Source of the DNA: a virus
IMG/VR virus record: IMGVR_UViG_3300002460_000010
Coordinates: 1-42,488 of that record
Length of the DNA: 42,488 bases
Strand: one strand, 5' to 3'
Below are positions 3,668-40,173 of the stretch, piece after piece (the stretch's first letter is position 1; each line of letters begins with the position of its first letter). The notes beneath the pieces are model-generated. The model ran no database searches. It had not been told where the DNA came from and saw only the letters and a list, made by a program, of their open reading frames with translations. Position numbers and translations under genes: made by a program.

Positions 3668-3668
3668 T

Positions 3669-5007: not shown

Positions 5008-5704
5008 AATTAGCATCATAATGACCCATTGGGCCCAGGATTCATTAAGATCCCACACTTTGCGTATTTGTCTTGAGTCTCTGATAAGAACTACGAGACA
5101 TCTGCTGGTGGAGATTATTGTAATTGATAATGGAGGCAGTATAGAAGATTCAAACTATTTATTAAATCTTTGCCATGAAAATAAGATTCAATTCTATCTT
5201 AGAAACTCTGCGAATTTATACTTTGGTTTTGCTCGAAATCTTGGGGTTGATATTTCTATTGGTAATTTTGTGGTATTTTCTGATAATGATATTGAGTATT
5301 ATCCTGGTTGGCTTGATAAATGTGTTCAGGTCTTAAATGCTTATCCTGATAGAAAGATAGCGATTACACCCTTAAGAACAGATAAAGTTCACCGTAAGGA
5401 TAATCATTATTTTGGAGAGCTTACATTGGGCGAGGAGAGGTTTCCCCTGAATATCCGAGCCGGTTCTAATTCGTGGGTTATTAGAAGAAAGGATTTTGAT
5501 GTAATAGGTAAGTTTTTAAATCACCGTGTAGCCGGAACTAAATGGACTGATAAATTTGTTAGGGACGGCTATTTAATGGCTACAATGGATTATTCACCCC
5601 TTGCTGCTGATATGGGTTATTCTTACGGGTATAATTTTACGGAGCAGGTTATTTTAAAGAGACAATTTGCTGACGGTAGTGAGGTAATTATTAATGAAAC
5701 ATGA
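5000..5704 (+). CDS. glycosyltransferase family 2 (GT-A fold)
   Basis: 'EIIVIDNGGS', 'FGFARNLG', 'FSDNDIEY' (DxD). Confidence 0.75.
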   Translation: MDKISIIMTHWAQDSLRSHTLRICLESLIRTTRHLLVEIIVIDNGGSIEDSNYLLNLCHENKIQFYLRNSANLYFGFARNLGVDISIGNFVVFSDNDIEYYPGWLDKCVQVLNAYPDRKIAITPLRTDKVHRKDNHYFGELTLGEERFPLNIRAGSNSWVIRRKDFDVIGKFLNHRVAGTKWTDKFVRDGYLMATMDYSPLAADMGYSYGYNFTEQVILKRQFADGSEVIINET

Positions 5705-6165
5705 AGTTAAGTATAGGTTCTGGTCGTAAAAGTTACCCAGGATACAAAACCATAGATGTAGAATCCTACGCTAATCCTGACTATTTAGGAGATTTTAGAA
5801 CGATGTCTTTCTCAGACTTAGACGAAATAAGAGCCCATCACTTACTGGAACACTTTAGCCGACAGGAAGGAGAGAAAGTAATAAAACTATGGTATTCTTG
5901 GTTAAAAACAGACGGCATGTTGATAGTTGAGACTCCTGATTTTGAAGGAATATGCGATAATTTTAGGAAGGATAAGTACTGGATGACTAGGCATGCTTAT
6001 GGTTCTCAGGAGGCGGAATGGGCCTATCATCGGGATGGTTGGTATCAAGAGAAGTTTGAGTTTATTCTACCAAAACTAGGTTTTAATATTATAGAAATAA
6101 GAAAATCGGTATCTCGCAAGATACTGCCGAATATAACGGTAATTGCTAAAAAATATGAAATATAA
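5701..6165 (+). CDS. class I SAM-dependent methyltransferase (Methyltransf_11/23-like)
   Basis: 'LSIGSG' glycine loop, 'HHLLEHF', '[12 protein letters not shown]'. ATGA-type overlap with the upstream GT. Confidence 0.6.
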
Positions 6166-7087
6166 AAAAGTATTAGTTACGGGTGGAGCGGGTTTTCTCG
6201 GCTCTATTGTGGTGGAAAAACTTATAAAAAGAGGAGTGCTTAAAAAGAATATTCTAATCCCCCGTTCTAAAAATATGGATTTAAGGAAATGGGAGAATTG
6301 TGTTAAGGCGGTTAAGGGTCGGGATTTGGTAATTCATTTAGCCGGTGATGTGGGCGGGATAGGGTATAATAGGGAGAACCCCGGTTCAATGGTTTTTAAT
6401 AATTTGATGATGGGGATTCAATTAATGGAGACGGCTAGGCAGGCAAAAGTTAAGAAATTTGTAACAGTCGGGACTATCTGTGGATATCCTAAGTTTACTC
6501 CCGTTCCTTTCAAAGAAAAAGATTTTTGGAATGGGTATCCCGAAGAGACTAATGCTCCTTATGGTTTAGCTAAGAAAATGTTATTAGTTCAAGGTCAGGC
6601 TTACCGGCAACAATATGGTTTTAATTCTATTTATCTTATTCCCGTTAATCTTTATGGGCCGGGAGATAACTTTGATCCAGCTTCTTCTCATGTTATTCCG
6701 GCTCTTATCAGAAAGGTTGATAAGGCTATTAAGAATAAGGATAAATATATAGAAGTTTGGGGTGACGGCAGCGCTTCCAGGGAATTTTTGTATGTTGATG
6801 ACGCGGCTGAGGGGATTGTTTTAGCTGCCGAGAAATACAATAAATCGGAACCTATAAATTTAGGAGTAGGTTCAGAGATTACTATTAAAAAATTGGTTAC
6901 TCTGATTTGTCATTTAATGTCGTTTAAAGGAAAGATAAAATGGGACAAGTCAAAACCTAACGGTCAGCCCCGCAGAGTGCTGGATATTTCCAGGGCTAAG
7001 AAAGAATTTGGGTTTGAGGCTAAGCAGAATTTGATAATAGGGTTGTATAATACTATTAAGAAATACCATGAAATATACGGGAAATAA
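6155..7087 (+). CDS. fcl: GDP-L-fucose synthase-like NAD(P)-dependent epimerase/reductase
   Basis: '[13 protein letters not shown]' Rossmann loop, 'NAPYGLAKK' (YxxxK), and '[23 protein letters not shown]', which closely matches the conserved Fcl/WcaG/GMER block. ATG 6155 preferred over TTG 6143. Confidence 0.75.
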
Positions 7088-7610
7088 TAGCCCTGATTAC
7101 TGGGACAATAGTTGGAGGAATAATGTGAAGAAATTTCCAAGATATACAATGAACCGGGTTTTTGGGTTAATTCCTGATAATGTTTCGGTGCTGGATATAG
7201 GTTCCGGTGATGGCACTTTTTTAAAAAGATTACAGACTAAGAAAAATTGTCAGGTCTATGGTATTGATATTTCTTTTATCGGCATTGAGAAAGGTAAGAA
7301 TATTGGAGTTCCCGGAGAGGTGAGAAGCGCGGAAGAAATGGATGATTTTGATAAAGAAGCCGATGTGGTTATTTGCAGTCACCTATTGGAACACGTCGGA
7401 GATGACAAGGGGGTGGTAAGAAATATTGCCAGACTGGCTAAGCAATTTGCTGTTATAGCTGTCCCTAATAATTGTTCTTATCCGGAAGAGACGGGAGAAC
7501 ACGTCAGGAAGTATACTAAAGAATCATTGAAAGAACTACTTTCGGGTTTCTTTCGGGTGGTGGAAAATCACACTCTCGGTAATCACTTAATATTCAAATG
7601 TCTAAAATAG
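7068..7610 (+). CDS. class I SAM-dependent methyltransferase
   Basis: '[11 protein letters not shown]' motif I, '[11 protein letters not shown]'. Confidence 0.7.
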
Positions 7611-8278
7611 TTTCACACACTCTTTGTCGGAACGGCCAACCCTTTATAGGAGAGGTTCTTAAAGCTGCTCTACCGATTGTGGATAGAATGATAATAACCA
7701 TTTCTAAGCGGTCAAATGACGGGACAAGGGGGGTTATAGAGGCCCTGAATAGCCCTAAGATTGAGCTATACGAGGAGGAAGTCAGTAATCTTGGCTTGCT
7801 TACCCAAGAACGTCAAAAACAGGTAGATATGACCGATAAAGGTGATATAATCTGGTTTTTAGATGATGATGATTTTTGGCAAGAAGAACACGCCAGGGCT
7901 TGTATTGGAGTGTTGCAAACTAATGATTTTGATGCAGTCAGTGTCAATCCTTATCAGGTGATTGGGAAAAATATGCAAGATGCAAACTGGATCAGTAGGA
8001 AATATTTTACTAAATTCTTTAAGAATGTGGATATTAATTACAGGCATCCCTGGCCCAGAGATATAATATTTAAGGGCGACCAGCATCTTTATTGGAAAGT
8101 TAACAGGAGAAACCCAAGAGTGCCGTTTAAGTTTTTTCACCTTGCTGAAGTAAAGGGGCATTCTTTCAGGAATTATGAACTAAAGGATTTCAAATATCCT
8201 GATGTTAAACCCACTTCTTTAGTGGCAGAATTACCTAAGCCAATATATGAAATTCTCAATAATCGCGCCAATATTTAA
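7598..8278 (+). CDS. putative glycosyltransferase (GT-A-like)
   Basis: 'RMIITISKRSNDGT' and acidic 'IIWFLDDDDFW' (DxD-like). Resemblance is weaker than for its neighbours. Confidence 0.45.
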   Translation: MSKIVSHTLCRNGQPFIGEVLKAALPIVDRMIITISKRSNDGTRGVIEALNSPKIELYEEEVSNLGLLTQERQKQVDMTDKGDIIWFLDDDDFWQEEHARACIGVLQTNDFDAVSVNPYQVIGKNMQDANWISRKYFTKFFKNVDINYRHPWPRDIIFKGDQHLYWKVNRRNPRVPFKFFHLAEVKGHSFRNYELKDFKYPDVKPTSLVAELPKPIYEILNNRANI

Positions 8279-8897
8279 CGAAGAGAAGTATATAAAAAGA
8301 ATGATAGATTCTGTTTTTGAGCAGGGAGTTGACTTTGAATTGATTTTAATGGATGGAGGCTCTACGGATAAGACACATGAAATTATTAATACTTATCATG
8401 ATCCCCGGCTCAAGTTGATAATTATGCCTCATAGATTTTGGAACGAAGAAGATAAAATAAACAGTGTCCAGACCAGGGCTAATATAGGGATATCTTTGGC
8501 CGAAGGGGATATATTCTTTTTGTCTTCGGGTCACGATTGGTTTTTCCCGGGAGCTTTGAAGATAGTAGAAAAAGAAATAGGAGACAGTATTTGGTTAATG
8601 GGCAGATTGGCAAAAGTTGATGAAAATGGTAGAATTGTTAAAAAGATAGCTAATATCCGTTATTCATGCGGTTTTATCAAGCTTGATTTTATCAGAAAAT
8701 ACGGCATAAAACTTGATATTTCCCTGGCTGCCGCGGATTATGACTTGTTTATGCAGGTTCGCAAGTATGCCGGAGAGCCTAAGAGAATTGAGGATTATTT
8801 ATATAAATATATGCTACATCCGTCGGCTTTGAGTAAAAAATTCAACGGAAGAATGAAGAGAGAAAGGAAGAAATTGGATTACCTGTATGGGGTTTGA
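8247..8897 (+). CDS. glycosyltransferase family 2
   Basis: 'FSIIAPIFNEEKYIKRMIDSV', 'ELILMDGGSTDKT'. Paralogous to the N-terminal half of 9422..10744. Confidence 0.7.
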   Translation: MKFSIIAPIFNEEKYIKRMIDSVFEQGVDFELILMDGGSTDKTHEIINTYHDPRLKLIIMPHRFWNEEDKINSVQTRANIGISLAEGDIFFLSSGHDWFFPGALKIVEKEIGDSIWLMGRLAKVDENGRIVKKIANIRYSCGFIKLDFIRKYGIKLDISLAAADYDLFMQVRKYAGEPKRIEDYLYKYMLHPSALSKKFNGRMKRERKKLDYLYGV

Positions 8898-8946
8898 TTT
8901 GATATAATAAATATGGTCGATTAATTAATTAAAGGAGGAAAATATA

Positions 8947-9414
8947 ATGTCAAAGAATTTTGTGGCTTTAAAAATAGCTATAGTAAAACCAAGTTATCTG
9001 AATTTACCGACTCATCCTTCCGGGCATGATGGTTATGAAATAGATCAGCACGGTATTGGTATGCATTATGATAAGGGTTGCTGTGATTTTGACGATAATG
9101 GTTTTCGTTATGCGGTAACAGCTTTGCCGGAGGAAAGAGCGAATGCTTATATAGCTAGAGGCCAGGGTAGAGTTGTTAAAATGACTGAAGCGGAAGCGGA
9201 AGCTTTCTTTGTTGAGCATTGTAAATATGAGCCGGAAGAAGTGTTTGATTTGGACAGATTGCAAGCTATCAAATTAAAGAAGGATTTTGGTTTGCCTTTA
9301 ACGGAAGATGATAATAATGCTATTAATCCTGATAATGCTTTTGTCAGGGGTATTTCTAAGAATTTGAAAAAGGGATTTAGAAATAAACTTCCTAAAGACG
9401 CGATAGTTTTATAA
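8947..9414 (+). CDS. hypothetical protein inside the sugar-enzyme island
   Basis: 155-aa ORF with strong SD (taaaggaggaaaatataATG). No motif recognised. Confidence 0.6.
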   Translation: MSKNFVALKIAIVKPSYLNLPTHPSGHDGYEIDQHGIGMHYDKGCCDFDDNGFRYAVTALPEERANAYIARGQGRVVKMTEAEAEAFFVEHCKYEPEEVFDLDRLQAIKLKKDFGLPLTEDDNNAINPDNAFVRGISKNLKKGFRNKLPKDAIVL

Positions 9415-9421
9415 CTCAATT

Positions 9422-10744
9422 ATGGAGGAAAGTAAATTAAAAATTACTTGTGTAATACCCGTTTTAAACGGAGCTAAGTACATCGCCAAAGCTATTCAAA
9501 GCGTTCAACAGCAGGAAGAACCTTGGGAATTAATGATAGTAGATGGCGGTTCAACTGATAATACGGAAGAAATTGTAAGGGAATTTAATGACCCAAGAAT
9601 AAGGTTTGTCTCAATACCAAACTGTGAAGGTCCGTATGTTCAAGAAGACGAAGGTATCAAATTAGCTACCGGAGACATCTATCACAATATGGGCTGTGAC
9701 GATACGGTCCTTCCTGGTGCTTATAAGACGGTTCGTGAGAACATTGGTGATGCAGAATGGATGTACGGAAATATGGTCGTCTACAATGAGGACTATCAGT
9801 TCAAGCGCGAGAATCATTCCCCTATTTTCAACTATCATCACTATATGGAGGGTAATATGCTCGGAACTCCCTGTTCGTTTATAAGGCTGGACTTTATTAA
9901 AAAGCATAACCTAAAACATACAGGCAGGTGGTTAAACGCTGATTACTATTTTTTACGACTTTGCGCCCAGAAGGCAAAACCGAAACAGATTGGTGATATG
10001 TTGATAGGGATTATGGCTAGAAAAGACTCTATTACTGGTCAAAATTCTAAACAATTTTCTGAATGGAAATTAGAGATGATGGAAGAGCTTAATCAGCTTC
10101 CTTTGCCCGATTATGCTAAAGAAGAGGTGGTTAACCCTAAAGTTCTGATAGCTATAGGCCATCACGGGACGGTTAGAACCGAGATGCTACAGGTTGTGGC
10201 AACTATGATAACTGACGGGAGATGTAGAATAAAGATAATCTATCCTGGTGATAGAATGACTGAAGAGAGGTTCGCCAAGCTAGGAAAAAAGGTGGTTAAA
10301 GAGGGCTGGGACTTTTTATTGAGTATTGATGCTGATAATCCGCCTATTAAAAATCCATTGGATTTAGTCTTCCTAAACAAGGATGTTATGGGCTTGCCGA
10401 CTCCACAATGGTATAATGAAGATAAATACCCAATATTTTGGACAGCTTTAAAGAAAGTACCTAATGGCTGGGATCAGTGGGAAAATAGAAAAGGTTTACA
10501 ACAAGTAGATGCAGTTGGTTCAGGATGTATTATAATTAAGAGAAAGGTGTTCGAGGCCCTTCCAGACGCTCCCTTTGAAAGGAAATGGAATAAGGACGGA
10601 ACACAGGAGTCGGGTGCAGATTTCAACTTCTGTGAAAGAGCAAAATCAAAGGGATTTGAGATTTGGACCCACTTCGACTATCCATGTTCGCACTTTAAGG
10701 AACTGGACTTACTGGAAGTGCTGAAGTTCAAACATAGAGATTAA
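9422..10744 (+). CDS. two-domain glycosyltransferase (GT2 N-half fused to a second GT-A-like C-half)
   Basis: N-half: 'ITCVIPVLNGAKYIAKAIQSV', 'ELMIVDGGSTDNT'. C-half: 'LLSIDADNPP' (DxD), 'GSGCIIIKRKVFE', 'GADFNFCERAKSKGFEIW'. Confidence 0.65.
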   Translation: MEESKLKITCVIPVLNGAKYIAKAIQSVQQQEEPWELMIVDGGSTDNTEEIVREFNDPRIRFVSIPNCEGPYVQEDEGIKLATGDIYHNMGCDDTVLPGAYKTVRENIGDAEWMYGNMVVYNEDYQFKRENHSPIFNYHHYMEGNMLGTPCSFIRLDFIKKHNLKHTGRWLNADYYFLRLCAQKAKPKQIGDMLIGIMARKDSITGQNSKQFSEWKLEMMEELNQLPLPDYAKEEVVNPKVLIAIGHHGTVRTEMLQVVATMITDGRCRIKIIYPGDRMTEERFAKLGKKVVKEGWDFLLSIDADNPPIKNPLDLVFLNKDVMGLPTPQWYNEDKYPIFWTALKKVPNGWDQWENRKGLQQVDAVGSGCIIIKRKVFEALPDAPFERKWNKDGTQESGADFNFCERAKSKGFEIWTHFDYPCSHFKELDLLEVLKFKHRD

Positions 10745-10759: not shown

Positions 10760-11908
10760 ATGCCGGCATTTTTATCGGGCAACCTGGTATATTCTGATTT
10801 AACTGGTTCCGCTAAGAGGACATCTGCTTTTACTTCTACGGTTCAGGCTTCTTTTACTGCAACCGGAATAACCGGAGCAACTACGGATGCTGCGGATTTT
10901 TATGGTTGCGTTGATTCAACCGATAAACATACCAGATATTCAGGTTTTACTTCAACGGTAAAAAGTTCATTTACAGCGGCTAATAATAATTTAGGTATTA
11001 CTTGGGATGGAAAATCTCCTGCTAGATATTATACGGGAGACAACACTAATACTAAAATAAAGAAGTTTTCAGGCTTTACTTCAACTGTAGCTTCTAGCGT
11101 AACTAGCTTAGACTCTCCTTGGGATGTTACGTTTGATGAAACTGATTGTTATTATTCTGATTTTACCGGTACTGTTAGATTAGTAAGGTTATCTGCTTTT
11201 ACATCTACGGTTAAAGCTTCCATAGCATCTCCTGGCACTGGTCCTAGAGGTATTTCTATTCAAGAGAGTAATTTGCTTTCATCGAACGCTGCGGCTGACC
11301 CAAATAATAAGGTATATCAACATAGTGCTTTTACTACGACTATAAAAGTTTCTTTTCAAAGAAGTGACGTTCACGGTATGGAGTGGGATGATTATGCTAC
11401 TAGAGCTCAGGATGCAACTACTACTTCTTCGTCTACTAGTACGTCAACCTCCACTAGTACAAGTACATCAACTTCTACTTCAACTTCTACCTCTACGTCT
11501 ACTAGCACTAGTTCTACATCTACCAGCACGAGTACGTCAACTTCTACTTCTACTTCCACTAGTACAAGTACGTCAACATCTTCTTCTACTACTTCAAACA
11601 CTTCTTCTTCTACATCATCATCTACTTCAAGTTCGACGACTTCTAATACCGAATCAACTACTTCTTCGACAACTACTTCTACTTCTACCTCTACTTCTAC
11701 TTCTACCTCTACTTCTACTAGTACCTCTACAAGTACAAGTTCTACTACCTCTACTTCTACTTCTACTTCCTCTACAACTTCTACTTCTTCCACAACTTCT
11801 ACAACAACTTCCACCAGTTCTTCCAGTTCTACTACTACCCAACCGCCCTATATGGTGCCGCAAGTAGACATCCAGGAGTTTAAGCCAATTATAGATACTA
11901 TGGTATAA
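10760..11908 (+). CDS. repeat-domain protein with a ~140-aa poly-Ser/Thr ('mucin-like') tract and short C-terminal tail; candidate glycosylated virion fibre/decoration
   Basis: SD gaggagg lies 8 nt upstream. The N-terminal 215 aa hold 5-6 copies of S(A/G)FTSTV(K/Q)(A/S)SF spaced about 39-44 aa apart. Residues ~220-360 are S/T with only a few N/E. The protein ends QPPYMVPQVDIQEFKPIIDTMV. It lies between the last GT and the tail genes. Confidence 0.6.
   Translation: MPAFLSGNLVYSDLTGSAKRTSAFTSTVQASFTATGITGATTDAADFYGCVDSTDKHTRYSGFTSTVKSSFTAANNNLGITWDGKSPARYYTGDNTNTKIKKFSGFTSTVASSVTSLDSPWDVTFDETDCYYSDFTGTVRLVRLSAFTSTVKASIASPGTGPRGISIQESNLLSSNAAADPNNKVYQHSAFTTTIKVSFQRSDVHGMEWDDYATRAQDATTTSSSTSTSTSTSTSTSTSTSTSTSTSTSTSSTSTSTSTSTSTSTSTSTSTSTSSSTTSNTSSSTSSSTSSSTTSNTESTTSSTTTSTSTSTSTSTSTSTSTSTSTSSTTSTSTSTSSTTSTSSTTSTTTSTSSSSSTTTQPPYMVPQVDIQEFKPIIDTMV
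11417..11839 (+). repeat. coding low-complexity Ser/Thr tract (varied codons) within 10760..11908
   Basis: Read directly from the translation. Other frames give artefactual LRLQ (+) and VEVE (-) ORFs. Confidence 0.9.
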
Positions 11909-20997: not shown

Positions 20998-21319
20998 GGT
21001 CTTTATCCACCATCTGAATACGGGTCATAATATACCGGTCATCTGTGCATAAACCACCCTTCTCTAGGGCATCACAAAGGAGCTTGAGGTAGTTATGAGA
21101 GTCGGCATTAGAACGAGTAAGGAAGAACCTTAAGTCTAAATGGAAGAAATAGTTATACGGCTTTATTTTATTATTATTGCAGTATACCCAAACTAGCTTG
21201 GAAGCATCTAATAACCAGTCTCTAGCTTCAGTTGAGAGTATTTGAAAACCAGTAGTTCTACTGCGTATCATTCTCCTATTCGTTGACGGCGGGAGAGGGA
21301 GGATCAGAGAGTGGTTCAT
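20966..21319 (-). CDS. rusA: RusA-family Holliday junction resolvase
   Basis: 'LPLPPSTN', 'NADSHNYLKLLCDAL', 'DDRYI'. The 3' end overlaps the convergent 20581..20997 by 32 nt. Confidence 0.7.
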   Translation of the reverse strand: MNHSLILPLPPSTNRRMIRSRTTGFQILSTEARDWLLDASKLVWVYCNNNKIKPYNYFFHLDLRFFLTRSNADSHNYLKLLCDALEKGGLCTDDRYIMTRIQMVDKDPKNPRVELSF

Positions 21320-21945
21320 TTCCCTTTAATAATACCATATAATTGTATTGCCTTATGTTGATAAGTATCTGTTTCTTTATGACAACTTTTACACAGGGTT
21401 CTGCCATTAGAAACCTTAAATCTTAATTTAGGGAAATAAGCAAAGGGTAAAATATGGTCAGCTTCTAGTTTTCCACCCCTCTTTTTACACCATACGCAAG
21501 TCCAGTTATCTCTTTTAAAAACCTTTCTGCGCCATATTTTATATTTTAAGCTTTTTCTAATTAAATTATTAATAGAAGTAACTCCTCCCCTCCATGCTCT
21601 ATTATTACTTCCTAAATTCCAATATGCAGATTTTCCTACCCTTGCTTCTTTTAATTTTTTGACATAACTATCAGAAAATTTTTTATTTAACCAATATCTT
21701 ATTTTTGGCCTTAATTTATTTTTATAAAGAAACTTTTGTTTGGCACTAATTTTCTTTTTAGTTTTAGTTGTCTTTAACCTCCCTTTATTACTATCAGATA
21801 AAGCTTTTAATCTACATAAATGAGAGCAGTATTTATTAGGATTATACTTCTGAAGCTTTTTAATTTCAAATATATTATTGCACCTGTGGCAAGTTGTTTT
21901 TGTCATATTTATCTTTCTTATAAACATAGTCCCATAATTCTTCAA
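21316..21945 (-). CDS. HNH endonuclease with Cys-rich N-terminal repeats
   Basis: 'CVWCKKRGGKLEADHILP…NGRTLCKSCHKE', with N-terminal 'CHRCNN…YCSHLC'. The likely true start is ATG 21927 or 21906; the track start is TTG. Confidence 0.75.
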   Translation of the reverse strand: MKNYGTMFIRKINMTKTTCHRCNNIFEIKKLQKYNPNKYCSHLCRLKALSDSNKGRLKTTKTKKKISAKQKFLYKNKLRPKIRYWLNKKFSDSYVKKLKEARVGKSAYWNLGSNNRAWRGGVTSINNLIRKSLKYKIWRRKVFKRDNWTCVWCKKRGGKLEADHILPFAYFPKLRFKVSNGRTLCKSCHKETDTYQHKAIQLYGIIKGK

Positions 21946-23053
21946 TTATAAACTTATTTAAATCTTTTTGATATATTGAATTTTCATAAGCTTCTTTTGC
22001 GGGTCCTGCGGATTCTTTTAAAAGTTGGAGCCAAGTAGGATGATAAATCAACATAGATGAATTAGTTTTACCATGTTTTTCCATATTCCATTTATCCCAA
22101 GGCCGCTGAACGATTAATTCATTAAATGTCATTTTCCTGCGGTTCTCAATAGTAGCTCTTCTTTTTACCATTTCTATTTTTGCCTCTGCCATCATTTGGT
22201 CTAATGTATCTTTCCTTCCTTTCCTTAAATAGTTTATATATGCTCTCTCAATCCAATCATCAGCTCCTAAAGCCCAGCCACAATTAAAGATATTGTGGAT
22301 ATATGAATCGTGATGATAAACATAATTTCTACCTGAAGATAGATGATAACCGATTGCATTAGGGTCAGTAACTACAGTAGAACCATACATCCACCAAAGA
22401 CAATCGACGAATACTTCACCCCCGCCATAAGTCCTGTGAACTTCCGGATAGCCGCCAAAATCTAAGAACTGATCTCTCTGAACCATCACTCCCCAATGGC
22501 CTTGTCCGGCTACAGCAAAGGGAGTATCGGCAACTTTGTAGTTATTCCAAGTCATCTTCCATTCTTCCCCTAATTTAAAAGTATAACCATAACCCATACC
22601 CCCATGATGGGGTGGATAAGCTCCCATCCATTGTACTGAACCATGTACAATTCCTCCTGTGTCTTGACAGGTCTTAATTATAGATTTAAAAAATCCTGGC
22701 TTAAAAGCAATATGAGCATCTGAGAAGTATAAATATTCTCCTCTAGCTATCTGGGCTCCTTTGTTCCGCGCGGAATGATTACCTGCTATTGGGTCGTACA
22801 AAACTCTAACTTGCCTAGACCAAAACATTCCTCGTGGCATAAAGTAAGAGGTAGTTCCTTTCGTTCCTTTTTGAGGCCAGAAATTATTATCAGTAGAACA
22901 ATTATCAACAACTATAATTTCCCAATCTTCAGGAGAGAATCCATCTGCCTCAAGGCAATGAATAGCGGAGTAGATCGTATGAACGATGTTCGGAAATTCG
23001 TTACGGGCGGGAATGATGACGCTTAGTTTTAGTGTGGGTTTAGGTGGTAACAT
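21875..23053 (-). CDS. GT-A fold glycosyltransferase (GT2-like, DxH variant)
   Basis: 'LSVIIPARNE', 'IIVVDNCSTDN', 'YFSDAHI', 'YGGGEVFVDCLWWMYG'. Confidence 0.65.
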   Translation of the reverse strand: MLPPKPTLKLSVIIPARNEFPNIVHTIYSAIHCLEADGFSPEDWEIIVVDNCSTDNNFWPQKGTKGTTSYFMPRGMFWSRQVRVLYDPIAGNHSARNKGAQIARGEYLYFSDAHIAFKPGFFKSIIKTCQDTGGIVHGSVQWMGAYPPHHGGMGYGYTFKLGEEWKMTWNNYKVADTPFAVAGQGHWGVMVQRDQFLDFGGYPEVHRTYGGGEVFVDCLWWMYGSTVVTDPNAIGYHLSSGRNYVYHHDSYIHNIFNCGWALGADDWIERAYINYLRKGRKDTLDQMMAEAKIEMVKRRATIENRRKMTFNELIVQRPWDKWNMEKHGKTNSSMLIYHPTWLQLLKESAGPAKEAYENSIYQKDLNKFIIEELWDYVYKKDKYDKNNLPQVQ

Positions 23054-23324
23054 TTAATTTTAACCATAAGTTGGCTATTGCTGCTTCGGGAGTTGAGCCG
23101 AAGGTAAAACATAATTCCAGATCACCTTCGGCCATCCATTTATCAAGTGCATCTTGCCTGTAATTGAGAGCCTTAAATCTATTTCCACACGCTTCTATAA
23201 GTTCAGAGAGAGTCGGGAATCTCTCGTTAAAGGTAACCTTAGTTCCGTCGGGTAATTCCATAACGCCAAAAGAAATTGGTTTAAACCCCGCGTCTTTTAA
23301 TTGTTTTGCTAATTCGTAGTTCAT
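23040..23324 (-). CDS. hypothetical protein
   Basis: ATG 23324 forms an ATGA overlap with the stop of 23321..24340 (MNYELAKQLKDAGF…). The track start 23345 is less likely. Confidence 0.55.
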   Translation of the reverse strand: MNYELAKQLKDAGFKPISFGVMELPDGTKVTFNERFPTLSELIEACGNRFKALNYRQDALDKWMAEGDLELCFTFGSTPEAAIANLWLKLNVTT

Positions 23325-24340
23325 ATATTTTTTGGGAATCTGCATTTTGCTAATAAAGGTGTGTGGGTTGTATCAATTCCTGTCGGTTCACCTGCGGCTG
23401 AGAAGAACTGCACCTCTTCAAAGAAATGAGAGAGGACGGCATGGAACTCCTGGCTCGTGAACTCGCGGACGTGATAGATATTTCTGGGCTTATCCTTTTG
23501 GATCGTCTTATGATTCCTATTAGGCGTAGATATGAAATACTCTGTAGGGTTATCTTTGCTTTTAGTATCAAACTTCTTGGTTATCTGCTCCAAGAACTTA
23601 TAACAATCCGCTATATGCTCTATTATCTCTATCGCCACGACTATATCAAACTTCATCGTCTCTCTATTCTCATTTACAATATCAAAGACATCAAAACTAA
23701 CTTGACTATTGTAATAAACACCATTCTTAACCCTAGTAAATGCTTCTTTAGCGAACTGAACACTAAGCTCATTCTTATCTATGCCCCATACAAAATCAGC
23801 TTCTTGAGAAATAACATTAGAACCAACACCCGAACCACAACCCACATCTACGACTGTCGGCTTCCAAATAAACTTAGGGTATTGAGGATGCTGGGTAGCC
23901 TTCCACATACAGTGGTTCTTGATGAACTCATACATCAACCGTGTCGGCTTCCACAATAAAACACCATTGTGCATAAATAAATCTATATTAGCCTTCACCT
24001 GGTTCTTATCCGGCATCTCCGGATTTTCCTGATAATCAGGATCTGAAATAAGGGTGTTGGGAGTCGCGACCTCAGTTTTACTCTCGTTTAAAGGCATCGT
24101 AGGAGCTTGTTTTTCCTCGGTTTGGGTATTTTCTAAGGATAAGGCCGCTTTGCCGGAAGGTTCATCTATAGGCTGAGTTTGAACTATATTTTGAGGTTGC
24201 TGTCTCAATTCTTCTTCTTCTTTCTTCTTATCCTCTATCTCTTTGGCTTGTCGGTCATAACAGACATAGCAAAGAAGATTAACAAAGTCATCCGGTATAG
24301 GGCTTTCGCATACATCGCATTTTTTATTTTGTTCCGACAT
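23321..24340 (-). CDS. zinc-ribbon + class I SAM-dependent methyltransferase fusion
   Basis: N-terminal 'CDVCESPIP…CYVCYD', an E/K/Q-rich linker, then 'VVDVGCGSGVG' motif I and 'IVVAIEIIEHI'. No DPPY/SPPY motif, so probably not a DNA amino-methyltransferase. Confidence 0.65.
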   Translation of the reverse strand: MSEQNKKCDVCESPIPDDFVNLLCYVCYDRQAKEIEDKKKEEEELRQQPQNIVQTQPIDEPSGKAALSLENTQTEEKQAPTMPLNESKTEVATPNTLISDPDYQENPEMPDKNQVKANIDLFMHNGVLLWKPTRLMYEFIKNHCMWKATQHPQYPKFIWKPTVVDVGCGSGVGSNVISQEADFVWGIDKNELSVQFAKEAFTRVKNGVYYNSQVSFDVFDIVNENRETMKFDIVVAIEIIEHIADCYKFLEQITKKFDTKSKDNPTEYFISTPNRNHKTIQKDKPRNIYHVREFTSQEFHAVLSHFFEEVQFFSAAGEPTGIDTTHTPLLAKCRFPKNI

Positions 24341-24460
24341 ATTTTAATAAGTAATTAGTTAATTTATTACAAAGAAATAATAAAAACTCAACAAAAAAAC
24401 TACCTCGTTTATAAACCTGCCTACCTTCTGCTCCTTTTAACCACATTTGAAATTCTTTTA

Positions 24461-24655
24461 TCATGATAATTGATGACCGCACATTGGGCATAGCTTCTTT
24501 TCTTCCGGGTTGCATTTATGGCATAGTCGATCAGCAAAGAAGATGCCCGTGCACTCATGGGTTAATTGTTTCCAGGGTATATTCTTATGACAGATCGTGC
24601 AGTGCTTAGGCTTTGGGAGTATTTTATTTTTTGTTTTGGTTAAGAAGTTTAGCAT
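24461..24655 (-). CDS. small Cys/His-rich (zinc-finger-like) protein
   Basis: Internal ATG 24655 lies 2 nt after the upstream stop. Motifs 'HCTICHKN…HEC…CHKCNPEEKKLCPMCGH'. Confidence 0.45.
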   Translation of the reverse strand: MLNFLTKTKNKILPKPKHCTICHKNIPWKQLTHECTGIFFADRLCHKCNPEEKKLCPMCGHQLS

Positions 24656-24657
24656 TG

Positions 24658-25275
24658 TTATAGTACTAGTCTCCACTTTCCCCTCGTTACTTTCTCTATA
24701 CCGCAATGTACCCAAGCCTTCCTGCAAGAACCCCACTTTTTTTGATATATGCCCATAGAGTGAGGAAAACCATTTAGTCGCTCTGGGTAGCGATCTCTTT
24801 CTTTGATTTCCTTTTTGAGTTTGCGATTAAACTCTGGTGGATAAGGGAGATAGCTTCGTCCATCAATCCAGCGTGGATGGTCTTCTTTTTTTCTTTTACC
24901 TTCTTTAACCCATTTGTCATAGCATAACCTGGAACAAAATTTACATGGTTTTTTATTAATTTGAGCAGGAAATCGGTAGAAGTTTTTTTTACACTGAATA
25001 CAAGCTCTACTAATCTTACCTCCTTTCCATCCTGCACGGCTTTTACTACCTCTGTAATTTTCTGAAATAAATTGATAGGCACATTTTCTCGTGCAGAATT
25101 TCTTTTGATGACTTGGGAATGTCCAGTATTTTTTGCCACATATTTGACATTTTGTTTCATATTTTCTTTTAAGTGTCGTCCAATAACATTCTACTGAACA
25201 AAATTTAGACCTTTTCTTTCTCGGTTTTTTGCACCCCACGCATAGAAATGAGTTTGTTGTTATATTCATCAGCAA
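24658..25275 (-). CDS. Cys-rich paralog of the HNH-endonuclease N-terminal region, no recognisable HNH core (possibly decayed)
   Basis: Three 'C-x2-C … (F)C(S/T)xxC' repeats as in 21316..21945, and 'RWIDGRSYLPYPPEFNRKLKKEIKERDRY'. No CxxC…HH…N…H nuclease motif follows in any of the three frames I translated. Confidence 0.45.
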   Translation of the reverse strand: MLMNITTNSFLCVGCKKPRKKRSKFCSVECYWTTLKRKYETKCQICGKKYWTFPSHQKKFCTRKCAYQFISENYRGSKSRAGWKGGKISRACIQCKKNFYRFPAQINKKPCKFCSRLCYDKWVKEGKRKKEDHPRWIDGRSYLPYPPEFNRKLKKEIKERDRYPERLNGFPHSMGIYQKKWGSCRKAWVHCGIEKVTRGKWRLVL

Positions 25276-26008
25276 TATCTAATAAGCTCATTTTAGCAAC
25301 TTTTTTGAGGGCTTGCAAGTCTTTCGGCAAACACTTGGACTCCTTAATTGTTCCATACCCTCTATAGCCTTTATGAAAGATGACGGAATGTGAATCTCCA
25401 ATCCATCTATTCTGGACGAGGACTTCACGAATAGTCTCATAATCCGCTCCCACCTCTTTACTAGCATCGTATAGTTGGTTGAACCAGGTGACCTTAAGAG
25501 CGTAATACGAGTTTTGAGCATGTTTAAGTAGCTCAGCATCAAGCGGTGATACGACTCTTTTGACAGGGGCTTCGGGTAAGATTTTGAAGATTTCATGTAC
25601 TAGTGATAACGACTGCTGAGGACAACCAAGTATCTGGAATTGAGGCTTGGTAAAGTCTTCCCAGGCAGTCATTTCGGTTAAAAATTCACAATTATAAACA
25701 AATCTTAAATGGGGATATTTTTCTTGGAACCAATCTAGCGTGCCGGGGATAAATGTGCTCTTGATAATAACGATGCTACCTTTCTCCATCGTGGCGAAGT
25801 AGTTATTAAGAGCTGACTTACTGTCTTCACTTGCACAATTATCCTGGAAGTTAGCGCAAACAAAGAATACTTCGGCTTTTCTGACTTCTTCCCAGGAATC
25901 GCAGGGACCTCGGACATCATAGCCTTTAGCATCGGGATAGTATCTCTTAAGTATCTGGCCTATAAAACCATTACTTCCTATTATCCCGATTGTTTTTTTT
26001 GTGTCCAT
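25205..26008 (-). CDS. truncated UDP-glucose/GDP-mannose 6-dehydrogenase-family protein
   Basis: 'IGIIGSNGFIG' NAD loop, 'NCEFLTE' (cf. NPEFLREG), 'AELLKHAQNSYYALKVTWFNQ', 'KCLPKD' catalytic-Cys block. At 267 aa the C-terminal nucleotide-sugar-binding domain is absent. Confidence 0.6.
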   Translation of the reverse strand: MDTKKTIGIIGSNGFIGQILKRYYPDAKGYDVRGPCDSWEEVRKAEVFFVCANFQDNCASEDSKSALNNYFATMEKGSIVIIKSTFIPGTLDWFQEKYPHLRFVYNCEFLTEMTAWEDFTKPQFQILGCPQQSLSLVHEIFKILPEAPVKRVVSPLDAELLKHAQNSYYALKVTWFNQLYDASKEVGADYETIREVLVQNRWIGDSHSVIFHKGYRGYGTIKESKCLPKDLQALKKVAKMSLLDIADEYNNKLISMRGVQKTEKEKV

Positions 26009-26136
26009 TTTCGTGTAGTTTCTCTTTTACGTTTTGTTTTACAGTCGAAGCAGGTAATCATTATTCCTCTGTTGCTACGCGTCATTATACTTTTACAATA
26101 ACGGCATTTAACTTTGTAACGGTTTATCTTTCTCAT
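25981..26136 (-). CDS. unlisted 51-aa zinc-ribbon ORF (CxxC-x17-CxxC)
   Basis: MRKINRYKVKCRYCKSIMTRSNRGIMITCFDCKTKRKRETTRKWTQKKQSG. GGAGG lies 6 nt upstream of the ATG. It bridges the 99-nt gap between GroEL and the dehydrogenase, overlapping each by about 28 nt. Below the ORF-track size cutoff. Confidence 0.45.
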   Translation of the reverse strand: MRKINRYKVKCRYCKSIMTRSNRGIMITCFDCKTKRKRETTRKWTQKKQSG

Positions 26137-27571
26137 CGTTGGCCTCCACCAAAATTCCTTTAGTTGTAATTAACAACGACACAATAGACACGGCAGATTC
26201 CACGCCCGCAATCAGCACCTCCACCGGATCTATAATATCTTCTCCAACTTCTAATTCTTTTACCTCCATATTCTCTAACAATTGTTGGTGAGGATATTTA
26301 AGAGCAGCATTTAAAATACCGCTGGATGTTTTAATCTCGCCTAAAGTAACACCCGCACCCATTACTACACCATCTTTAAACGCTACCTTGGTTGCATTAA
26401 CCGCGTCTTCCACCTTGTACCTTAAGGCCTTCATTTCATTCTCCGTAGCGCCACCGACCTTTATAACCGCTACGCCGGAAGTTAGCTTGGCTAACCGGTC
26501 CTTCATCTTATCTTTCTTTAACTCTGATTCTGTAGTTTCAATAATAGCTTTGAGCTTGGTAACATACTCATCTATCTTCTTGCCGTGTCCTCCGACTATA
26601 GTTGTAGAATCCTTAGTAAGAATTACTTTGTCGGCCATACCCAGGTCCTCTAATTGCACATCCTCTATCTTCTTCCCTAAGTCGCCGGCAATAAAGCTGG
26701 AACCGGTAAGCTCGGCTACATCCATTAAGAACTCATACTTATCATTGGAATAGTATGGAGCTTTAACAGCAGGGAAGAGGCCGACACCCTTTACGTAATT
26801 TATTACTAATGTGGCCAAGGCCTCTCCCCTGATGTCATCAGCTATAATGAGGAGCTGCCTGTTCCCCGACGCCACTACTTTGTTCATTAATGGAACTAAC
26901 TCCTTTACATCTACCAGCTCCCTATCAGTTACGAATATATAGGGCTTATCCAATATCGTCTCGGCCTTCTCCGGGCTATTAATAAAATAAGGAGAAGCAA
27001 AACCACGGGGGAACTGGAGGCCTTTTACTACGGTATGGGTCGTCTCCATCGAGCGGGATTCTTCTATAGTAACAATGGCTTCATGGCCGAGTTCAGATAG
27101 AATCTCGGAAATAACCTCAGCCATCTTTTCGTTATTAAAAGATATATAAGCTACTTGCTTGAGGTCTTCTTTGCTTGTTATCTGTCTGGCTTTGGCTTTT
27201 ATCTGAACCTTGAACTCTTCTAACCCTTGTTGTAAGTCAGCTATAACTTCACGGGCTTTGTAAGATTCCAGTGCCTTGATTTCTTTCATCAACGCTTGAA
27301 GCATTATAAGAGAGGACGTTGTGCCGTCACCAACGCGATCATTGGTCTTCACGGCTACTTCTTTTACTAGCTGAACTACGGAGTTCTCAAACTCATCCGG
27401 TAATTCAAACTCTTTAGCCGTAGCAACGCCATCATCTATTACTTCTTGGCGATTACCACGTTGGAGGATTACTTTATTCTGAGCCGGGCCGTAAGTAGGT
27501 TTTACAAAATCACAGAGCTTATCAACGGCGTCAAAGATTAATGGGTTTAGTTTTTGGGTGTATTTTTTCAT
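26108..27571 (-). CDS. groEL: group I chaperonin GroEL/Cpn60 homolog (short, 487 aa)
   Basis: 'VGDGTTSS', 'QFPRGFASPYFIN', 'LLIIADDIRGEALATLVIN', 'AVKAP', 'GVAVIKVGGATENEMKALRYKVEDAVNATKVAFKDGVVMGAG' all align with conserved E. coli GroEL blocks. It lacks the GGM tail and about 45 aa of the C-terminal equatorial region. Confidence 0.9.
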   Translation of the reverse strand: MKKYTQKLNPLIFDAVDKLCDFVKPTYGPAQNKVILQRGNRQEVIDDGVATAKEFELPDEFENSVVQLVKEVAVKTNDRVGDGTTSSLIMLQALMKEIKALESYKAREVIADLQQGLEEFKVQIKAKARQITSKEDLKQVAYISFNNEKMAEVISEILSELGHEAIVTIEESRSMETTHTVVKGLQFPRGFASPYFINSPEKAETILDKPYIFVTDRELVDVKELVPLMNKVVASGNRQLLIIADDIRGEALATLVINYVKGVGLFPAVKAPYYSNDKYEFLMDVAELTGSSFIAGDLGKKIEDVQLEDLGMADKVILTKDSTTIVGGHGKKIDEYVTKLKAIIETTESELKKDKMKDRLAKLTSGVAVIKVGGATENEMKALRYKVEDAVNATKVAFKDGVVMGAGVTLGEIKTSSGILNAALKYPHQQLLENMEVKELEVGEDIIDPVEVLIAGVESAVSIVSLLITTKGILVEANDEKDKPLQS

Positions 27572-28917
27572 TCGTAGTAAAGTGGCTCAACCTGGTGCTT
27601 AAAGATATGGTCAAGCGAATAATTCTTGAGCAACTCTCTCTGCCCCAATAGAGGTTTATTTATATTCATTTGGTTTTCTATAATCGCCGCCCAGTCAGCG
27701 TAATACTTGTCTTCATCAGTATAATTAACTACGGTGTCTTTACTCCCAAACTCCATATATAAAGAATGGTCTCCACCAAATTCTCTAAGCTGAGGGACAT
27801 TGGCATTTAAAACGAGGAGGTTCTTTGATAACATAGCCTCCAATAATATCAGCGAACAGTTCTCACTAATTGTAGGAAATACGAATAAGTTTGACAAGAG
27901 GAAAAGTTGAGAAACTATCTCTCTACTTACCCCAGCTTCATACTTCGGGATTTCTTCAAGAGACGTAAAGATAACTTCATCAGGATCAAGCCCCCAAGAA
28001 GCAAATGTAGCTTGTAAACTTTGAATATTTTTCTTTTCCCTTTCATGATTAGCGTGAGCATTGGCGATAATATATTTAACTTTGTGTCCTCTGGCTTTGA
28101 GTTTAGCGAATACTCTAACCGCTTTCTGAACCTGTTTACCATCCACCATCCGAGTAGAAGAAAGAGGATAAATCCCCATGTAATCAGCAGATAATAAATC
28201 ATATTTATTAATTAAGTTTATAACAAAAGGGTCAAGTTGCCAAAAGGTTCTGGGGTCTACTACATTGTGGACAACCCGGACTTCGGATAACCAAGTTCCA
28301 TACATTTCAGCTAAAGCCAGGGCATGATAGTTGTTTAAGTAAATTATCTTAGCGTTGCGGGGTTTGTTAAATCTAAAGCTATGTATACCGGTAGGTTCTC
28401 TTACTGATGGAGCTGAATGAGTCCAGAGAAGCCATTTGGCTTTAATCAAATCATACTGGCAAATCTCGTGAATAGCTCCGCAATAAGGAATATAGGTGTC
28501 AATGAAGTGCATATCATGAGCAATCATCACATCTATGTCGGCAGCGAACTGTCTCAGAGCGCTCACGACAAGCTTAACCTCGTCCTTAAATTCTTCTGGT
28601 TGGCCGAAGCTCTTGTATTTTTCCAGTATTAATTGAGGGATGACTTTTCTAATCTCCACTCCTTTAGGTATTTTGTCATCATCTTTAAATGACGGCAGAA
28701 CGAATAAGACACATTTATATCCGTGCTTGAGGTTCATTTCGAGTTGGTCATGGATAACCGAAGTAACTGAATAAGCCCTACTCCAGTCGTAGTGCGTGGT
28801 CATAAAACCGATTGTCTTCTTAAGTTCCTCCATAGTTTGATACTTTCTCCTGGCAGTGAAGCCAGAGAGCGGGGATTTCTCCCTCCCCCAGTAGATTGCT
28901 CTACCAGGAGAAAACAT
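27568..28917 (-). CDS. GT-B fold glycosyltransferase (GT4-like)
   Basis: 'FVFPTISENCSLILLEAMLSKNLLVLN' (GT4 C-terminal EX7E-type block). Its stop overlaps the GroEL ATG (ATGA). ATG 28917 overlaps the upstream TGA (TGATG); ATG 28833 (MEELKK…) is an alternative. Confidence 0.65.
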   Translation of the reverse strand: MFSPGRAIYWGREKSPLSGFTARRKYQTMEELKKTIGFMTTHYDWSRAYSVTSVIHDQLEMNLKHGYKCVLFVLPSFKDDDKIPKGVEIRKVIPQLILEKYKSFGQPEEFKDEVKLVVSALRQFAADIDVMIAHDMHFIDTYIPYCGAIHEICQYDLIKAKWLLWTHSAPSVREPTGIHSFRFNKPRNAKIIYLNNYHALALAEMYGTWLSEVRVVHNVVDPRTFWQLDPFVINLINKYDLLSADYMGIYPLSSTRMVDGKQVQKAVRVFAKLKARGHKVKYIIANAHANHEREKKNIQSLQATFASWGLDPDEVIFTSLEEIPKYEAGVSREIVSQLFLLSNLFVFPTISENCSLILLEAMLSKNLLVLNANVPQLREFGGDHSLYMEFGSKDTVVNYTDEDKYYADWAAIIENQMNINKPLLGQRELLKNYSLDHIFKHQVEPLYYE

Positions 28918-29288
28918 CAAATCTCATATTTCTTGATCCAGTTGCAGTTAGCGCATAATAGCTGATACCGGTTCTTATCTACTTCTCCTTTTATAATTTT
29001 TAAATATATTTTACGCTTACTTAAACCGTATTTCTTCCTGTCTTCCGGTGCATCATCGTTAACATGGTCTAGCTGTAATACTCTGTAATCAGAATTATCA
29101 CACCTTTTACATTTACCACCATACATTTCAAGCAATAATAACCTTACTCGTTGTTCGCGACTCAGTGACCGTACCTTAGTCATTACCTCATCATAGTCCT
29201 CCCTAGATGCTTTTCTAATGGGGACTTTCGTCACCATTATATTATACAATAAATCTTGATATATGTTATCAACAAGCTTAATTTCCAC
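28917..29288 (-). CDS. HNH endonuclease
   Basis: 'CKRCDNSDYRVLQLDHVND' and 'LLCANCNWIK'. The start is uncertain: GTG 29288 directly abuts GGGAGG, and ATG 29237 is the alternative. Confidence 0.7.
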   Translation of the reverse strand: MEIKLVDNIYQDLLYNIMVTKVPIRKASREDYDEVMTKVRSLSREQRVRLLLLEMYGGKCKRCDNSDYRVLQLDHVNDDAPEDRKKYGLSKRKIYLKIIKGEVDKNRYQLLCANCNWIKKYEI

Positions 29289-36583: not shown

Positions 36584-36665
36584 TTAATTTTTAAAGACCT
36601 CCCGCACGATCTTATTATGGTGCTTATTAACACCCGAATTGGCCCATAAAGGCCAATACCGGCTA

Positions 36666-36800: not shown

Positions 36801-36806
36801 AATTAG

Positions 36807-36835
36807 AGTATACTCCGATGATGTTTAGGTGTCAA
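36807..36835 (-). promoter_or_regulatory. sigma70-type early promoter (leftward)
   Basis: The - strand reads TTGACA-17 nt-TATACT-ctaatt-ATG. Confidence 0.6.
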
Positions 36836-36926: not shown

Positions 36927-36963
36927 AACTTAGTCCACAAAATACCGCTTTTTACCCCCTTTC

Positions 36964-39912: not shown

Positions 39913-40173
39913 ATGAATATACAACCGTTAAATGAGAATGTGTTGGTTCGGGTCCTTAAAGATGAAGAAGAAGGCGGCAGCGTAATCCTCCCCGATATGC
40001 ACGAGGCCCAGAAGTTTGGTGCAGGCGAGGTGTTAGCGGTAGAGGAAGATATGCCGATAAAGGTTGGCGATGTTGTTTTATTTGACACAGTTCTGTTAAT
40101 TCATGTTAAAATGAAAGGAGAAGATTTAAGGTTTATTAAATTTACTGATATACTTGGTTATGAGCAGCGATAA
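39913..40173 (+). CDS. groES: GroES/Cpn10-type co-chaperonin
   Basis: MNIQPLNENVLVRV…GGSVILPD…GAGEVLAV…VGDVVLFD parallels E. coli GroES MNIRPLHDRVIVKR…GGIVLTG…RGEVLAV…VGDIVIFN. The ATG directly abuts the TerL stop. Confidence 0.8.
   Translation: MNIQPLNENVLVRVLKDEEEGGSVILPDMHEAQKFGAGEVLAVEEDMPIKVGDVVLFDTVLLIHVKMKGEDLRFIKFTDILGYEQR

Follow-up and report, generated by a model that had tools for sequence, protein, structure and literature searches.

A predicted protein O-glycosylation operon with a chaperonin gene as apparent lineage-specific cargo in a 42-kb groundwater-type phage genome

Background

Chaperonins (GroEL/GroES) encoded by phages are a known kind, and so is the glycosylation of virions by phage enzymes. 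Genes related to both stand together in the DNA described here, the IMG/VR record IMGVR_UViG_3300002460_000010 (positions 1-42,488, the whole of which is called the window), where a GroEL gene lies inside a tightly packed operon of glycosyltransferase genes. In eukaryotes, mucin-type O-glycosylation is initiated by polypeptide N-acetylgalactosaminyltransferases (ppGalNAc-Ts), family GT27 of CAZy. GroES/GroEL (groE of phage lambda) and gp31 of phage T4 act in phage head assembly, and gp146 of Pseudomonas phage EL is said to be a phage-encoded group I chaperonin that works alone. Mycobacteriophages reportedly carry virion glycosylation cassettes with glycosyltransferases and O-methyltransferases beside structural genes, and PMC11256854 and PMC11600133 refer to this glycosylation (Freeman et al. 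2023). In viromes, GroEL/GroES gene pairs of phages occur commonly, and viral co-chaperonins without the roof hairpin have been described as well (Marine et al. 2017, PMC5649160). The word 'glycosyl' occurs 0 times in that paper and glycosyltransferases are unmentioned in its survey of neighbouring genes.

Two features of the locus are new. The first is a family-wide triad of genes around a GT27-like glycosyltransferase, with adjacent poly-Ser/Thr genes, essentially absent from deposited phage genomes; the second is a cargo slot inside this triad, which holds a chaperonin in one lineage. No description of a GT27-like triad was found in the literature searched. The segment is read here, with modest confidence, as a phage protein O-glycosylation operon which carries a general chaperonin as lineage-specific cargo.

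Results

The window begins and ends with an identical 51-bp direct repeat (1-51 and 42438-42488), which marks it as a complete phage genome, circularly closed, of ~42.4 kb; it was obtained from a groundwater-type sample. Phage landmarks in it are a portal of the P22/SU10 type, the large terminase and, at 763-1782, a major head protein. The + strand block (from ~37.5 kb across the origin up to 21 kb) contains packaging, head, sugar cluster, virion structural and lysis genes. The - strand block (~37.4 kb down to 21.0 kb) contains a DNA methylase, an exonuclease and RusA, with the GroEL sugar operon at its distal end. The comparison set comprises ~80 related loci, named L001 onward; the metagenome scan gave 69 loci, mostly from 0.1-um fractions of Hainich groundwater and from similar sites, and these were tallied with loci fetched earlier.

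The operon reads, along the - strand, HNH endonuclease, GT4, GroEL, a 51-amino-acid (aa) zinc ribbon, a short UDP-glucose-dehydrogenase-like enzyme, Cys-rich open reading frames (ORFs), a zinc-ribbon methyltransferase, a 94/101-aa ORF, the glycosyltransferase "GT2" and a second HNH endonuclease. Every gene listed in the preliminary description of this DNA was found in its place and order, and the sugar-enzyme operon proposed there is real, tightly packed and on the strand of the replication and recombination genes. From GT4 to GT2 all genes share one strand, with every junction at most 2 nt or overlapping when small ORFs are counted, and a single translationally coupled operon is predicted. 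Scans of this region for sigma-70 promoters and terminators gave shuffle level only, from which transcription units were not definable.

GT4, the methyltransferase and GT2 form a contiguous triad in many 40-46-kb contigs, recovered in searches with GT4 and with GT2. Judged by gene content and order, the triad is a conserved unit. It is shared by a broad family of podovirus-like phages (40-46 kb), known from metagenomes of groundwater and sediment, and occupies the far end of their replication-strand block. The first gene (27568..28833, - strand) encodes a GT4-type retaining GT-B glycosyltransferase with a marginal Pfam match (Glycos_transf_1, 26.9 bits against a cut-off of 26.4). Its AlphaFold2 (AF2) model, with a predicted local distance difference test score (pLDDT) of 90, has the two-Rossmann GT-B fold and finds BshA, MshA and WaaG as top Foldseek matches; these are generic GT-B matches only, with TM-scores low owing to domain orientation. 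The EX7E pair E324/E332 is invariant, and in more than 25 loci the triad starts with a GT4 homolog of 45-80% identity. The second gene (23321..24340, - strand) encodes an S-adenosylmethionine methyltransferase of 339 aa that bears a zinc ribbon at its N-terminus and an acidic linker (Pfam Methyltransf_31/11/12/23/25), with homologs in all triads. The third gene (21875..23053, - strand) encodes a GT-A glycosyltransferase of 392 aa, the GT2 of the operon, which is here called GT27-like. No protein of the family is better conserved, its identity being 55-64% over the broad set.

The junction between GT4 and the methyltransferase varies among the loci that span the triad. GT4 is followed directly by the methyltransferase in 13 loci. 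The junction holds the short dehydrogenase alone in L043 and L053, GroEL without the dehydrogenase in L021, and both in the window, L001, L003, L005 and L018; in L050 it comprises two GT2s, an epimerase/dehydratase, a C-methyltransferase and an AsnB-like amidotransferase. Such differing contents make this junction a cargo slot. GroEL in the slot is restricted to the sub-lineage of the window and is one inherited insertion. At least 14 relatives (L012, L013, L014, L024, L026, L030, L031, L032, L040, L042, L050, L060, L063 and L067) have the triad with no GroEL between GT4 and the methyltransferase, and the slot can be filled otherwise, so GroEL is not integral to the sugar module. Within the sub-lineage the order GT4-[small ORFs]-GroEL-...-methyltransferase-GT2 recurs in L001, L003, L005, L018 and L021, and small ORFs and then the short dehydrogenase follow GroEL in L001, L003, L005 and L018. 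The locus of L002 stops before GT2 and shows this order, dehydrogenase included, up to the methyltransferase. This order is inherited, beyond chance.

The gene types in the slot of L050 are those of a second sugar cluster of the window, on the late strand (3468..10744, +). By Pfam this cluster comprises a methyltransferase, an AsnB-like amidotransferase (4099-5007), a GT2, an unknown gene, an epimerase/dehydratase, a methyltransferase, two GT2s, an unknown gene and a GT2. The two sugar clusters of the window therefore belong to one pathway. Sugar chemistry genes (3468-10744, + strand, plus 21875-28833, - strand) occupy ~27% of the 42-kb genome, and the tally is six glycosyltransferases, three sugar-type methyltransferases, one epimerase/dehydratase, one AsnB-like amidotransferase and one dehydrogenase.

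The overlaps of the operon were found as previously described. GT4 and GroEL share an ATGA (tacgaATGAaaaaa, read directly at 27568-27571), the methyltransferase and the 94-aa ORF share another (atatATGAacta, read directly at 23321-23324), and the 51-aa zinc ribbon shares 29 nt with GroEL and 28 nt with the dehydrogenase. The preliminary description had taken them as a translational interlock; that they mark a special coupling found no support. Same-strand junctions overlap in 27 of 53 cases genome-wide, eight of them by ATGA, so that "translationally interlocked" fits the whole genome and not the GT4/GroEL junction alone. Moreover, the direct ATGA overlap of GT4 with GroEL was found in the window and L005 only; the other members of the sub-lineage (five of seven) carry intervening ORFs of 45-114 aa.

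The assignment of the third triad gene starts from a Pfam match (PF00535, 7e-18) and an AF2 model of pLDDT 87. The top 50 Foldseek matches of this model in the PDB are all ppGalNAc-Ts, with E-values of 1e-14 to 4e-12 and TMq of 0.51-0.59. The first matches of the sequence profile are GalNAc-T3 of Toxoplasma (TgGalNAc-T3) and mammalian GalNAc-T1 (2e-5 to 2e-3). Three elements, D112-A-H114, Y209-G-G-G-E213 and H237, are invariant in 24 homologs and align with DAH/DSH (DxH), WGGEN and the conserved His of TgGalNAc-T3. No ricin-type lectin domain was identified by Pfam, and residues 249-376 are predicted to be all-helical. The solved structures nearest to the predicted fold of GT2 are thus the eukaryotic polypeptide GalNAc-transferases.

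A candidate acceptor is encoded at 10760..11908 (+ strand), directly after the late sugar cluster. By composition and sequence, Ser and Thr make up 53% of this 382-aa protein, in which ~150 aa form a poly(ST) tail. Its N-terminal half contains five copies of a ~14-aa motif, 'S[AG]FT[ST]T[VI]..S', spaced by ~40 aa, before the (ST)n tail, and its final 22 residues are ordinary sequence, which indicates that the frame is genuine. Three distant relatives carry poly-Ser/Thr ORFs beside the triad. In L063 a nearly pure poly-Ser/Thr ORF of 121 aa (2536-2901) stops 6 nt before GT4 and looks like a minimal 'mucin' gene within the triad operon; in L064 two small proteins with poly-Ser/Thr tails are encoded ~2 kb upstream of the triad, and in L060 a poly-Ser/Thr protein of more than 495 aa is encoded 3 kb downstream. 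These ORFs, together with the GT27-like enzyme, support O-glycosylation of Ser/Thr-repeat proteins and make a modification of DNA or envelope less likely. A GtfA/GtfB-like partner, as in the serine-rich-repeat-protein system, was not seen. The tail protein at 11931-13328 was used as an anchor for orthologs of the poly-Ser/Thr gene; its relatives are at ~32% identity and their flanks were uninformative. The preliminary description had the sugar operon acting on a Ser/Thr-rich phage protein, and this part is consistent with the acceptor gene and with the affinity of GT2 to polypeptide O-GalNAc-transferases, whereas the tie of GroEL to it found no support.

The chaperonin (26108..27571, - strand) is a divergent, short GroEL of 487 aa (PF00118 4.7e-31, 108.5 bits against a cut-off of 34.3; phrog_5725 groEL 5e-100), with ~37% identity to cellular GroEL and PDB GroEL matches at ~1e-90. 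In alignment to E. coli GroEL all ATP-site residues are kept (G32, P33, D52, D87-G-T-T, D398 and D495). The apical sites that bind GroES and substrate (Y199, Y203, F204, L234, L237, L259, V263 and V264) are occupied by F, Y, F, V, M, L, V and I, all hydrophobic. Compared with E. coli GroEL the protein has lost residues 431-444 and 465-488, the GGM tail is absent as well, and the inter-ring contacts are not conserved, with E434 deleted and R452, E461, S463 and V464 replaced by Q, K, L and E. This altered segment hints at a single ring or a changed ring-ring interface. The 431-444 deletion is common to all phage relatives aligned, including phage GroELs linked to GroES; the 465-488 deletion is present in some distant relatives, and the GGM tail is missing throughout.

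GroEL homologs in metagenomes fall into two groups, a tight clade at 65-86% identity and a large set at 42-49% on contigs of ~40 kb. In every case of the distant set (L006, L007, L008 and L012) a Cpn10 gene lies immediately upstream of GroEL. In L008 the pair follows the portal, in L007 it precedes the terminase and in L006 it is surrounded by early genes; in L012 it is found two genes downstream of the GT27-like one. The terminase large subunit of L007 (7245-10787) is 1180 aa long and contains Hint/intein-splicing domains, which indicate an intein inside; a LAGLIDADG gene lies nearby.

In the window the two chaperonin genes are not adjacent, being 12 kb apart on opposite strands. The presumed partner is a GroES (Cpn10) gene at 39913..40173 (+ strand), identified by hmmsearch with the Cpn10 of relatives (2e-6), by Pfam Cpn10 (46.5 bits against a cut-off of 21.1) and as a phrog GroES; its product is shorter than E. 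coli GroES and lacks the roof hairpin. It sits between the terminase large subunit (38425-39912) and the portal (40531-42219). With GroES in the head module and the pairs of relatives near portal or terminase, the most parsimonious account is a move of GroEL out of the morphogenesis region and into the slot. The position of GroES, and the relatives that keep GroES and GroEL together, also point to head-protein clients, and by analogy head proteins may be taken as the default clients of this GroEL. GroEL is most likely a general phage foldase and not a dedicated subunit of a glycosylation machine. The preliminary description had called a chaperonin embedded in a glycosyltransferase operon unusual. 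This stands, because the neighbours of GroEL in the cultured phages checked were GroES or unrelated genes, never glycosyltransferases, and the neighbour survey of PMC5649160 names none.

The dehydrogenase (25205..26008, - strand) is a short UDP-glucose/GDP-mannose-dehydrogenase-like enzyme of 267 aa, in which the NAD N-terminal and central domains (PF03721 and PF00984) were identified above threshold. Its catalytic residues (T85, E108, E112, K162, N166, C226, K229 and D230) are all kept and invariant. The UDP/GDP-sugar-binding domain PF03720 is absent, the protein ending at the equivalent of residue ~295 of the 440-450-aa enzymes in the PDB alignment, and the UDP-binding domain is missing in all its homologs. 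The dehydrogenase was identified in ~15 loci, about half of the informative ones, within the slot or after the GT27-like gene. The preliminary description had called it truncated. This is correct in that only the N-terminal and central domains are present, but it is a stable short form and not a decayed gene; its catalytic residues are also invariant in gp019 of Campylobacter phage CP220 and in a cyanophage homolog. The possibility that a neighbouring small ORF supplies the UDP-binding domain found no support, as no such Pfam domain was identified in the neighbours. Immediately before the catalytic Cys (residues ~220-225) the dehydrogenase of the window has a 4-residue insertion, TIKE, and reads GYGTIKESKCLPKD where all relatives have 'GYGGKCLSKD'.

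An AsnB-like amidotransferase adjoins the triad in L013 and L050; together with the dehydrogenase, it suggests a plausible route by which hexose becomes uronic acid and then uronamide. A short UDP-glucose-dehydrogenase (UGDH)-like protein with the same catalytic residues is encoded in Campylobacter phage CP220 (L009; NC_027997 14033-14803), between QueE-like and other radical-SAM genes. CP220 is a phage with modified DNA. The family of short dehydrogenases may serve different pathways in different phages.

The remaining genes of the operon are small. The 51-aa ORF (25981..26136, - strand) has the CxxC...CxxC pattern of a zinc ribbon and the one good Shine-Dalgarno of the region (GGAGG at -6), with weak homologs in matching position in L001 and L002. 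A Cys-rich protein of 205 aa with repeated zinc fingers (24658..25275, - strand) matches the zinc-finger part of phrog_1271 (HNH endonuclease, 2e-8). It was found in the window only, with no homolog in the relatives, and is probably a remnant of the DNA-binding module of a homing endonuclease; its similarity to the N-terminus of the downstream HNH is not significant. A small Cys-rich protein of 64-91 aa, depending on the start chosen (24461..24736, - strand), is kept between dehydrogenase and methyltransferase in L001, L003, L005 and L018. The 94/101-aa ORF (23040..23345, - strand), of which the start ATG 23324 gives the ATGA overlap with the methyltransferase stop, has a homolog in L002 located upstream of the methyltransferase instead.

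Two HNH endonucleases flank the operon. The upstream one (28917..29288, - strand; phrog_2255 HNH, 3e-10), of uncertain start (GTG 29288 or ATG 29237), is present in L001 and L002 and absent in L003 and L005; the downstream one (21316..21945, - strand) was identified by Pfam HNH/HNH_5. According to homologs GT4 starts at ATG 28833 (MEELKK...) and not at 28920, so that an 83-nt structured spacer, and not an overlap, lies behind the upstream HNH gene. This spacer (28834..28916, - strand) forms a long imperfect hairpin (RNA fold -43.3 kcal/mol, z = -4.4), whose 3' arm stops 3 nt before the GT4 ATG and in which the AGGAG upstream of the GT4 start is buried. It is nearly identical in L001, where the flanking proteins are 73-77% identical, and L002 shows one compensatory change of C-G to U-A. 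No U-tract and no Rfam match were identified in the hairpin.

The - strand block is headed by a large non-coding region (36494-37229) with clustered GTTAAC-centred repeats; CGTTAACG is present there in four copies against 0.33 expected, plus variants. Consensus-like TTGACA/TATAAT-type promoters lie near this region, pointing both ways, and it is probably an early control region or origin. Shine-Dalgarno motifs are nearly absent from the - strand genes of 21000-29300, the starts being preceded by A/T-rich sequence. The scarcity of this motif first suggested a Bacteroidota host, which the consensus-like TTGACA/TATAAT-type sites of the control region counter. Ultra-small hosts are no more than hinted at, by the labels of relatives as metagenome-assembled genomes ('Roizmanbacteria', 'Woesearchaeota') and by the Hainich 0.1-um source. 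Two scans of GTDB genomes with GT4 profiles, aimed at host assignment, gave no match, and no tRNAs were found.

Deposited phages are nearly devoid of relatives. Against GenBank phages, megablast of window positions 21-30 kb and tblastn of GT4 gave zero matches, and tblastn of the GT27-like protein gave just three weak partial ones. Scans of IMG/VR with GroEL and with GT4 recovered a single relative contig.

Discussion

In the favoured reading, the GT27-like enzyme would place the first sugar onto Ser/Thr of poly-Ser/Thr phage proteins, here the product of 10760-11908. The GT4 and the GT2s of the late strand would extend the glycan, the methyltransferases would cap it, and the short dehydrogenase, the AsnB-like amidotransferase and the epimerase would diversify its sugars, for example from hexose to uronic acid to uronamide. 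In the sub-lineage of the window the slot would have gained the family's own divergent GroEL, parted from GroES, beside the short dehydrogenase. GroEL would then be made with the middle genes and pair with the GroES of the head-morphogenesis operon, and its clients would be head proteins, perhaps also the many alpha/beta sugar enzymes. A more specific version, in which a phage mucin-type O-glycosylation pathway (with the dehydrogenase possibly acting on attached sugars) builds a glycan-coated poly-Ser/Thr virion fibre and a single-ring GroEL uncoupled from GroES is its dedicated foldase, is considered highly speculative.

Several observations weigh against the favoured reading. The GT27-like assignment is based on a predicted structure and a weak profile match (E = 2e-5), and generic viral GT-A proteins reach comparable Foldseek E-values (1e-12), for which reason the enzyme is labelled GT27-like and not a GT27 member. 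The poly-Ser/Thr gene of the window is 10 kb off on the other strand, and within the sequence covered such an ORF was seen in just 4 of ~26 informative loci. The place of GroES comes from the window alone, the other loci of the sub-lineage stopping short of the head module. Finally, every other cargo found in the slot is a sugar enzyme, and GroEL kept its position inside the operon, while its identity fell to ~70% and the small ORFs turned over, which could mean selection for co-expression with the glycosyltransferases.

This last point leads to the strongest alternative, a dedicated coupling in which GroEL was recruited since the glycosyltransferases or their acceptor need it, one mRNA delivering the chaperonin together with its clients. 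The retained position over 14-30% divergence of GroEL and the uniformly sugar-related cargo speak for it, as do the ATGA junction with GT4 in the window and L005 and, in L012, a second and independent proximity of GroES-GroEL to the GT27-like gene. Alpha/beta folds are the typical class of GroEL clients, and ~27% of the genome encodes sugar enzymes of this kind. Nevertheless the coupling is held to be unlikely, and the functional lock of GroEL to the glycosyltransferases that the preliminary description had put forward is not borne out. Most relatives, at least 14 of them, have the triad with no GroEL between GT4 and the methyltransferase; all in-slot cases go back to one inherited, lineage-specific event; the overlaps are generic, with small ORFs between GT4 and GroEL in five of seven members; and GroES is placed in the head module. 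A disordered poly-Ser/Thr tail, moreover, requires no chaperonin, and as a quarter of the junctions lie in sugar clusters, a random insertion would fall among sugar genes about once in four times.

Another alternative is that the cluster, expressed early, remodels the host envelope (superinfection exclusion, receptor masking) or the phage DNA, with GroEL as unrelated cargo. Its position on the replication strand near RusA, exonuclease and DNA methylase would fit, the closest solved GT4 folds (BshA, MshA, WaaG) act on small molecules or lipid-linked sugars, and homologs of the short dehydrogenase lie beside QueE-like DNA-modification genes in Campylobacter phages. However, the best-conserved enzyme has its nearest counterparts in the protein O-GalNAc-transferases and keeps all three metal/UDP motifs, relatives have poly-Ser/Thr ORFs beside the triad, and no membrane-anchored Gtr-type flippase and no hydroxymethylase were found in the window; this explanation is judged improbable, a step below the former. 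An uncoupled single-ring chaperonin, with GroEL working alone like gp146 of phage EL and the separate GroES, without roof hairpin like T4 gp31 (PMC5649160), serving the host GroEL, is held to be very improbable. The lost inter-ring contacts, the absent GGM tail and the 12 kb that separate both genes on opposite strands speak for it; the conserved apical GroES-binding residues and a 431-444 deletion shared with relatives that have an adjacent GroES speak against it.

If the favoured reading is true, bacterial viruses make mucin-like glycoproteins with their own enzymes, which would bear on evasion by virions, on their attachment to surfaces and on the evolutionary reach of GT27-like enzymes. 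The slot is a natural experiment, as triads with and without GroEL allow one to ask for the purpose of a phage chaperonin. The weakened claim of an interlock advises caution in inferring function from overlaps in compact phage genomes. It stands out, too, that a genome of 42 kb devotes about one quarter of its length to sugar chemistry.

Comparison with known systems

As in the mycobacteriophage cassettes, glycosyltransferases and methyltransferases of the phage are tightly packed in operons and are predicted to decorate its own structural proteins. The window differs in that the putative initiator is GT27-like, the triad lies on the replication strand, and sugar-diversifying enzymes and a chaperonin are contained within the operon. 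Its acceptor candidate has a long poly(S/T) tail, whereas theirs are short C-terminal sites of capsid or tail-tube proteins.

With the eukaryotic GT27 enzymes the window enzyme shares the GT-A domain, the DxH, the 'GGE' of Gal/GalNAc-Ts and the third metal-binding His, along with a candidate acceptor made of Ser/Thr repeats. It is cytoplasmic and not of the Golgi, carries a helical C-terminal domain in place of the ricin-type lectin domain, and is 16-19% identical over the aligned part.

The chaperonin resembles gp146 of phage EL and the GroEL/GroES operons of virioplankton (PMC5649160) in its divergent viral GroEL, its GroES without roof hairpin and its podovirus-like genome. Here, however, GroEL is split from GroES and located inside a glycosyltransferase operon, and the genome is small (42 kb). 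The arrangement terminase large subunit - GroES - x - portal ... major head protein places the GroES homolog in the head module, as with T4 gp31 and lambda groE, and this phage also encodes its own GroEL, elsewhere. Finally, the dehydrogenase is like the short UGDH-like phage proteins (phrog_9148; gp019 of CP220, cyanophage C48C1), which comprise 250-320 aa with NAD and central domains and conserved catalytic residues, and the member of the window differs from them in sitting inside a predicted protein-glycosylation operon.

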